Positions 35,530-36,226 of a stretch of 64,000 nucleotides of DNA are shown here, piece by piece. Position 1 is the first letter of the stretch. Every line of letters starts with the position of its first letter. The stretch is from Escherichia phage LF82-1. The stretch lies in the sequence record PV648359; one strand, given 5' to 3'. The notes beneath the pieces were generated by a model, which was not told where the DNA came from, did not search any database, and was given only the letters and a program-made list of their open reading frames with translations. Both the position numbers and the translations under genes were made by a program.

Positions 35530-35747
35530 GTCACCTTTAAACAGTATTCTTCTACATGCTGTTTACGACCTTTCTTATCAATAAAGGTATATTCAACGAA
35601 TGTTCCAATGTAGTCTTTATCGACATCATGTGGACTATTAATTGGACATTTAGTACGACAAATGCGTTCCCATTGACGAATAATTACTGCTTTATTTTTA
35701 GGATCAAACGGATGTGGGTAATGCACATTCATAATAATGGTTCCCAA
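35520..35747 (-). CDS. Hypothetical protein (75 aa)
   Basis: ORF track. Confidence 0.45.
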   Translation of the reverse strand: MGTIIMNVHYPHPFDPKNKAVIIRQWERICRTKCPINSPHDVDKDYIGTFVEYTFIDKKGRKQHVEEYCLKVTWL

Positions 35748-36226
35748 TCAACAATCACAATTTCTAGTTTAGTGGAATATGTATCAAGAATTTCTTCAAT
35801 GATATCCCAGTTTCCACCACCTATACCTGCACCAATTCTTGGCATGTAAATCACAGGCTTTGCTATCTTATTCTTTCCGAATTTATTTAATTCTATTATA
35901 CAATTCATTAAAGCAGAGTACTCAAAATTAGGTCCGGGCTCAAACTGTGTATAAAGATTAAAGCAATAAGCTTTATGGGTCTTAAAATATTTTTCATAAA
36001 CCGAATAGGAACCGAGTTTAGACTCGTCTCCGAATTCGGTTTGAAGTTTATCGGCTTCTAAAATTTTTGGATAAGCCTTTGCTAATTGTCCTGCTACACC
36101 AGCGCCCATTGTATGAAAACAATTGCACCCATGAGCAATATTATTACCTTTAGAAAACAGGGCGACAATATCGCCCTTGATATAGTTTTTAATCACTTGC
36201 TGCAAGTCCTCTAGTATAAGAGTCAA
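35729..36226 (-). CDS. Macro-domain protein (ADP-ribose binding/processing)
   Basis: 165 aa; NNIAHGCNCFHTMGAGVAG and PRIGAGIGGGNW resemble the two glycine-rich macro-domain motifs. Confidence 0.6.
   Translation of the reverse strand: MTLILEDLQQVIKNYIKGDIVALFSKGNNIAHGCNCFHTMGAGVAGQLAKAYPKILEADKLQTEFGDESKLGSYSVYEKYFKTHKAYCFNLYTQFEPGPNFEYSALMNCIIELNKFGKNKIAKPVIYMPRIGAGIGGGNWDIIEEILDTYSTKLEIVIVDWEPLL

Follow-up and report, generated by a model that had tools for sequence, protein, structure and literature searches.

tk.4 (adfM) of Escherichia phage LF82-1 encodes a stand-alone macrodomain and most likely a counter-defence against DarTG2

Between tk and regB in the genome of Escherichia phage LF82-1 (PV648359) lies an open reading frame (ORF) whose product carries two glycine-rich motifs, GAGVAG and GAGIGGG, and the question it raises is what such a protein does for a phage. 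The window, i.e. the whole stretch of 64,000 nucleotides (nt) analysed here, is a genome segment of a T4-type phage. The original prediction, made from its letters alone, had read the ORF as a macro-domain protein that could reverse DarT-type ADP-ribosylation of DNA by the host, hydrolyse defence signals derived from adenosine diphosphate ribose (ADP-ribose, ADPR), or regulate the phage's own ADP-ribosyltransferases. We find in this ORF the Mosigvirus (RB69-type) orthologue of tk.4 from T4, recently named adfM, and consider its product most likely an enzymatic counter-defence against the host system DarTG2, a reading to which we assign a probability of roughly 0.8. DarTG2 stops phage replication by placing ADP-ribose on DNA. 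The gene is delimited as follows:

35729..36196, minus strand: tk.4 (adfM) coding sequence, 155 amino acids, GTG start, TGA stop, encoding a stand-alone macrodomain

The protein aligns with Tk.4 of T4 (NP_049723) without gaps and with 132 of 155 residues identical (85%, E 9e-105), and in tblastn searches of phage genomes it was 96% identical to Tk.4 of RB69 and ~84% identical to that of Tequatrovirus. By this full-length identity and by conserved synteny (vs upstream, tk.3 through to tk downstream) it belongs to the Tk.4/AdfM orthologous group, and the predicted location in the tk-regB interval holds, with tk (34570-35151) and regB (37084-37542) flanking the ORF. A Nei-Gojobori comparison with T4 yielded a nonsynonymous divergence (dN) of 0.09 and a synonymous divergence (dS) of ~1.3, which is saturated; the resulting dN/dS of 0.07 indicates that tk.4 is a genuine gene and that purifying selection on it is strong. 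The evidence for the ORF lies far above chance. The gene itself is already known: for decades T4 tk.4 has been annotated as an A1pp/macro protein, and the report of its role against DarTG2 dates from 2025.

The macro-domain assignment is borne out by sequence as well as by predicted structure. The Pfam family Macro (PF01661) was matched with 28.1 bits (gathering score 22, E 2.2e-6) over profile positions 2-117 of 118, and PHROG 335 with an E-value of 3.7e-66. Among PDB sequences, phmmer retrieved BT1257 (1.9e-11), Poa1p (7e-9), SCO6735 (6e-5), TARG1/OARD1 (1e-3) and the macrodomains of DarG (2e-3). An AlphaFold2 model built with 44 homologues (mean pLDDT 95.2, pTM 0.90) has the three-layer alpha/beta/alpha macro fold, so that the fold prediction on which the original prediction had made itself dependent is macro-like. 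Both quoted motifs are indeed encoded by the ORF on the minus strand, GAGVAG at 36089-36106 (residues 31-36) and GAGIGGG at 35813-35833 (residues 122-128); they form two glycine-rich loops that align with the ADP-ribose-contacting loops of DarG, and their core glycines are invariant. The product of tk.4 is thus a macrodomain of the ALC1-like class, which comprises TARG1, DarG, SCO6735 and Poa1p.

Does this macrodomain retain a working pocket? Conservation was counted over 121 aligned sequences, the window protein and 120 homologues taken from databases, and the family profile was then aligned by hhalign to the Mycobacterium tuberculosis DarG macrodomain, whose sequence matched PDB 5M3I at 100%. 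For BT1257 the profile alignment was likewise used, as the phmmer alignment mis-registers the NLYTQ strand through two compensating indels. The residue numbering of SCO6735 was derived for the profile alignment that places Q84 on Q85. Four segments make up the pocket:

36119..36133, minus strand: HGCNC (H22-C26), with H22 in 118/121, G23 in 119/121, N25 in 119/121 and C26 in 118/121 sequences; N25 aligns with DarG N22 (hhalign)
36089..36106, minus strand: GAGVAG (residues 31-36), first glycine-rich loop, G33 and A35 invariant; aligns with DarG G28-L33, including the ADP-ribose contact V31
35945..35959, minus strand: NLYTQ (residues 80-84), with N80, Y82 and Q84 invariant; Q84 is encoded at 35945-35947
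35807..35842, minus strand: PRIGAGIGGGNW (residues 119-130), second glycine-rich, diphosphate-binding loop, which holds GAGIGGG (35813-35833); aligns with DarG P114-W125

Gln84, N80, Y82, D49, G62, G33 and A35 occur without exception (121/121), and so do P119, I121, G122 and G124 of the second loop among the sequences covering that region (119/119). The second loop faces the DarG contacts G117, G119, N120 and G121, and Q37, the residue after GAGVAG, aligns with the DarG contact Q34. Seven residues described as ADP-ribose contacts in DarG (N22, V31, Q34, T79, G117, G119 and G121; PMC5179494) are found as identical N25, V34, Q37, T83, G122, G124 and G126 in the window protein, and the ADP-ribose pocket is therefore conserved. 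In DarG, N22A impairs and K80A inactivates the enzyme (PMC5179494), and the exchange N23A of the conserved active-site Asn reduced the activity of AdfM from phage PhiKZ (PMC13309987). By hhalign, Q84 lies at the position of DarG K80, of TARG1 K84, of the Gln of BT1257 and of SCO6735 Q85, and G126 at that of TARG1 D125. SCO6735 of Streptomyces coelicolor outpaces DarG and TARG1 in cleaving thymidine-linked ADP-ribose, relieves the toxicity of DarT and is specific for dT over dG; its variants Q85A and Q85E are inactive and a water-mediated mechanism was proposed (PMC9411070). The Gln84 site of Tk.4 is not degenerate: in SCO6735 the equivalent place in the structure is taken by Gln85.

The most direct evidence on function comes from T4. 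In the HIDEN-SEQ preprint of November 2025, tk.4 was the single significant match when a T4 transposon library was grown on a darTG2 host, and a clean tk.4 knockout sensitised T4 to DarTG2 (10.1101/2025.11.20.689424). In that work the gene received the name adfM (anti-DarT factor Macrodomain), and its protein was proposed to remove ADP-ribose from DNA enzymatically, a proposal which rests on the structural similarity of T4 Tk.4 to M. tuberculosis DarG (10.1101/2025.11.20.689424). The knockout phenotype fits the observation that T4 lacking both adfA and adfN retains its full resistance to DarTG2 (PMC11825919). Of the three predicted roles, reversal of DarT-type DNA ADP-ribosylation is the one that these genetics support, through an orthologue that is 85% identical (10.1101/2025.11.20.689424). 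The mechanism we favour, at the probability given above, is that Tk.4 would bind the ADP-ribose placed by host DarT2 on thymidines of single-stranded phage DNA (TNTC motifs) and would cleave the ribose-thymine bond, which would restore replicable DNA; it would act as an orphan, antitoxin-like counter-defence against DarTG2. Resistance would then work through enzymatic de-ADP-ribosylation, Gln84 would position substrate and water as SCO6735 Gln85 does and would not serve as a nucleophile as the lysine of DarG and TARG1 does, and the RB69-type allele would be expected to behave like that of T4.

Several points weigh against this mechanism. The DarTG2 phenotype belongs to the T4 allele, is genetic and comes from a preprint, and hydrolysis of ADP-ribosylated DNA by the Tk.4 family is something that we infer. 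The residue whose exchange inactivates DarG, K80, is Gln in Tk.4, and two further DarG residues are replaced, W83, which has been proposed to stack on thymine (PMC5179494), by Pro87 and K29 by Ala32. The Tk.4 family is also without the mobile loop with K89 and without K34 of SCO6735, features tied to high activity on DNA, and the similarity to Poa1p (E 7e-9) is stronger than that to DarG (E 2e-3).

The absence of the catalytic DarG lysine could also be taken to mean that Tk.4 counters DarTG2 without catalysis, as a stoichiometric antitoxin mimic that binds and inhibits DarT2 or shields ADP-ribosylated DNA. The catalytically dead SCO6735 Q85A does still inhibit DarT in vitro, more so than the DarG and TARG1 mutants, an effect called 'interaction-inhibition' (PMC9411070), and the phage anti-DarT factors AdfA and AdfB are thought to be direct DarT inhibitors. 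We nevertheless consider a non-catalytic role unlikely: neither the ADP-ribose pocket nor Gln84 varies among the 121 sequences, which come from very different phages and hosts, and this is easier to reconcile with an enzyme whose chemical substrate is shared than with a surface that contacts variable toxins. Moreover, Tk.4 has no counterpart of the C-terminal DarT-binding domain of DarG, and the isolated macrodomain of TaqDarG did not inhibit DarT when it carried K80A (PMC5179494).

The closeness to Poa1p brings up another alternative, namely that the main job of Tk.4 is the processing of nicotinamide adenine dinucleotide (NAD) metabolites, as a Poa1p-like ADP-ribose-1''-phosphate phosphatase or as an O-acetyl-ADP-ribose deacetylase. 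The T4 record does annotate Tk.4 as 'phosphatase; contains A1pp phosphatase motif', and the similarity to Poa1p is real; the phosphatase and deacetylase labels, however, are transferred by homology, and Poa1p has Ser, not Gln, at the Q84 position, as read by eye from the phmmer alignment. The substrate of Poa1p is a by-product of tRNA splicing, for which we know of no source in T4 infection, and T4-type tRNA repair (Pnk/Rnl1) bypasses the Tpt1 step that makes Appr>p. With DarTG2 sensitivity as the sole phenotype of T4 tk.4 known to us, we judge such a metabolic role quite unlikely.

A third alternative would direct Tk.4 towards ADP-ribose on protein or RNA, be it Glu/Asp-linked mono-ADP-ribose, uracil-linked ADP-ribose on RNA, or the marks set by Alt, ModA and ModB. 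T4-type phages encode these three ADP-ribosyltransferases, and both SCO6735 and TARG1 also cleave Glu/Asp-linked ADP-ribose from protein and uracil-linked ADP-ribose from RNA. Alt, ModA and ModB, however, modify arginine, and to our knowledge ALC1-like macrodomains do not cleave Arg-linked ADP-ribose. No phenotype ties tk.4 to these enzymes, the DarTG2 phenotype is explained by demodification of DNA, and the proposed regulation of the phage's own ADP-ribosyltransferases found no support in this analysis. As a main function we regard protein or RNA de-ADP-ribosylation as very unlikely; it might accompany the DNA reaction as a side activity and would then be no rival to it.

The remaining predicted role, hydrolysis of ADPR-derived defence signals, fared no better. 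That Tk.4 degrades or sequesters immune signals such as the gcADPR of Thoeris or His-ADPR is most improbable: the similarity underlying this idea is far weaker than that to the group of DarG, TARG1 and SCO6735, nothing in our analysis supports it, and the HIDEN-SEQ preprint, in its accessible text, reports tk.4 in connection with DarTG2 only and offers no genetic support for it. We retain enzymatic reversal of DNA ADP-ribosylation as the function of Tk.4 that is best in keeping with the evidence.

The exact extent of the gene had to be revised. The original prediction gave an ORF of 165 codons at 35729-36226, opening with TTG; this ORF exists and its stop (TGA at 35729) is correct, whereas its 5' end lies 30 nt too far upstream. 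We rejected the TTG at 36226, as T4 does not share the ten codons it adds and annotated records begin at 36196. In the GenBank record of identical sequence the tk.4 coding sequence starts with GTG at window position 36196 and has 155 codons, a three-way DNA alignment places the ATG of T4 exactly at this GTG, and 36/36 aligned homologues start at that Met or no more than two residues away. T4 carries an indel upstream of the Shine-Dalgarno sequence, so that the stretch matching the ten added codons is in another frame and cannot encode the same residues. Two short elements bear on this start:

36197..36226, minus strand: the ten codons (LTLILEDLQQ) of the longer ORF, which are the 3' end of vs and lie outside tk.4
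36207..36211, minus strand: Shine-Dalgarno sequence GAGGA, located 10 nt upstream of the GTG and thus still within vs; T4 and RB69 have it too

The GTG of tk.4 overlaps the stop of vs by 8 nt (GTGATTAA), which suggests coupled translation of the two genes. Together with an ATGA overlap between tk.4 and the next gene, this arrangement is suggestive of the translationally coupled clusters typical of T4. The order on the minus strand is regB, vs.1, vs, tk.4, three small ORFs of the tk.x series and tk, and the neighbours are located as follows:

37084-37542, minus strand: regB, at the far flank of the interval
36533-37075, minus strand: vs.1, between regB and vs
36189..36536, minus strand: vs, valyl-tRNA synthetase modifier, by the annotation of the identical record; the order is the same in T4 and RB69
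35520..35732, minus strand: homologue of tk.3, downstream neighbour of tk.4, its ATG overlapping the tk.4 TGA as ATGA
34570-35151, minus strand: tk, at the other flank of the interval

Over 34500-37600 the window matches Escherichia phage LF82-2 and its siblings at 100% identity and Shigella phage SHSML-52-1 at 99%. The interval between tk and tk.4 (35144-35732) holds ORFs like tk.1, tk.2 and tk.3 at 35144-35341, 35338-35529 and 35520-35732, as in T4, whereas in the RB69 reference (2992-3765) tk.2 stands alone between tk and tk.4 and tk.1 is located elsewhere; this difference is local mosaicism within Mosigvirus-like genomes. A promoter scan remained at chance level (13 found, 14.7 expected) and we make no claim about promoters, and an Rfam search of 35400-36700 gave no match. 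The HIDEN-SEQ preprint also reports that in minimal medium no T4 gene was depleted more strongly than vs (10.1101/2025.11.20.689424); with the DarTG2 phenotype of tk.4, two adjacent and translationally overlapping genes thus each have a recently found conditional phenotype.

The 5' end of tk.4 carries one further element:

36159-36177, minus strand: terminator-like hairpin AGGGCGATATTGTCGCCCT followed by GTTTTCT, in codons 7-13 of tk.4, with an 8-bp stem containing five G-C pairs

The 76 nt around it fold with -19.3 kcal/mol (z = -2.4), and the stem is composed of codons ending in C (GGC, GTC, GCC) within a gene of 35% GC. The hairpin is identical in T4 and phage ECO07P1 and absent in PEi20 and Klebsiella phage F48, and the record of Yersinia phage fPS-65 annotates a 'terminator' under its tk.4 match. 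One possible reading is an attenuator that separates vs from tk.4, another a side effect of encoding the conserved peptide KGDIVAL; lying within the first 20 codons, a conserved terminator-like hairpin might set the expression level of tk.4. The Tk.4 protein of ECO07P1 (601-1080) is only 58% identical to that of the window, while the first 30 nt of its tk.4 and the 3' end of vs upstream are 100% identical in DNA to T4 (4423-4890), an identity that drops to ~40% past nt 150 of the gene. This pattern at the vs/tk.4 boundary looks like a recombination junction or a constraint at the nucleotide level.

Homologues of tk.4 were found by tblastn in 2793 of 50,697 phage records and occur in T4-like, rV5-like and FelixO1-like phages as well as in phages of Vibrio, Acinetobacter and Pseudomonas. 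Two homologues assigned to a 'bacterial' metagenome-assembled genome (MAG) lie on contigs that are short and resemble phage DNA (T4-type RNA ligase, helicase, SLT), and the Tk.4 family looks essentially phage-borne. No DarT was found next to these two on their short contigs, which gives no evidence either way on origin. In Edwardsiella phage PEi20 only a 'tk.4' fragment of 45 codons (919-1056) is annotated, while query residues 11-162 match in one piece from 601 on (601-1056) with an ATG at the aligned start, so that tk.4 is probably under-annotated in this phage. Shortened tk.4 entries are also present in Citrobacter phages CkP1 (127 amino acids) and CF1 (two pieces).

Records for this phage group still read 'phosphatase' or 'hypothetical protein', for which 'anti-DarT2 macrodomain (AdfM/Tk.4)' would be more informative, and the gene bears on predictions of inhibitors or host range for T4-like therapeutic phages on E. 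coli carrying DarTG2. What the present analysis adds is modest and mechanistic: a Gln at the DarG/TARG1 lysine position throughout the family, which links Tk.4 to a mechanism of the SCO6735 type, and the non-orthology of two phage proteins that both bear the name AdfM.

Among known systems, T4 Tk.4, i.e. AdfM, is the orthologue, in the same position between vs and tk.3, with the same invariant residues and an identical hairpin stem in the first 20 codons. The two differ by 23 substitutions, among them GAGIGGG here and GAGIGKG in T4, and by the start, which is GTG with an 8-nt vs overlap in the window and ATG with a 4-nt overlap in T4. The antitoxin DarG of DarTG2 (PDB 5M3I, 5M31, 7OMU) shares the pocket described above and differs at K80, W83 and K29. 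Membership in the DarG family was rejected on the NCBIfam equivalog NF048014 (30.7 bits against a cut-off of 250, over positions 4-146 of a 338-position model only) and on the PADLOC DarG profile (32 bits, where a true DarG macrodomain reaches 266); Tk.4, with its 155 residues, has no C-terminal DarT-binding domain, and no darT lies next to its gene, the neighbours being vs and tk.3. A protein of the TARG1 type was likewise rejected, as the K84/D125 dyad of human TARG1/OARD1 corresponds to Gln84/Gly126. SCO6735 and BT1257 of Bacteroides, at ~30% identity, have in common with the Tk.4 family the Gln at the DarG/TARG1 lysine position; in the phage family the beta-hairpin that precedes the NLYTQ strand is longer. 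A mobile loop longer by ~5 residues is characteristic of the SCO6735 subclass, and this loop with K89, together with K34, was deemed important for processivity on DNA (PMC9411070). In hhalign the phage family shows a gap of 5-6 residues at this loop after the Gln strand and lacks both lysines, for which full membership in the SCO6735/BT1257 subclass was rejected. Yeast Poa1p (ADP-ribose-1''-phosphate phosphatase; PDB 6LFQ-6LFU), with 24% identity, carries an insertion ahead of the second glycine loop.

As the hhalign E-values against BT1257, TARG1, DarG and SCO6735 are all similar (1e-13 to 1e-16) and the SCO6735 loop features are absent, the Tk.4 family is best regarded as a separate phage lineage of the ALC1-like class, with residues that point to a Gln chemistry of the SCO6735 type. 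It is not the only stand-alone macrodomain with which a phage counters DarTG2: gp104 of PhiKZ, which independently received the name AdfM (Cell Rep 2026), was shown biochemically to remove DarT2-made ADP-ribose from DNA (PMC13309987). Translated from the published construct, gp104 has kept the DarG-type FPTK lysine and is 35% identical to M. tuberculosis DarG (E 3e-31), whereas it matches the window protein only locally over 23 residues (E 6e-4; hhalign E 5.8e-9). Judged from these alignments, T4 Tk.4 (Gln-type) and PhiKZ gp104 (Lys-type) are non-orthologous proteins of different lineages, which implies at least two independent phage recruitments of anti-DarT2 macrodomains. Whether Tk.4-type AdfM constitutes a third, phage-borne ALC1-like lineage that reverses thymidine ADP-ribosylation through its invariant Gln (SCO6735-like, water-mediated and lysine-independent), without the mobile loop and recruited independently of the lysine-bearing AdfM of PhiKZ, is a matter on which we see the odds as about even. 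If it does, phages acquired anti-DarT2 erasers on two or more occasions, and a minimal scaffold of 155 amino acids can carry out this reaction without the lysine.
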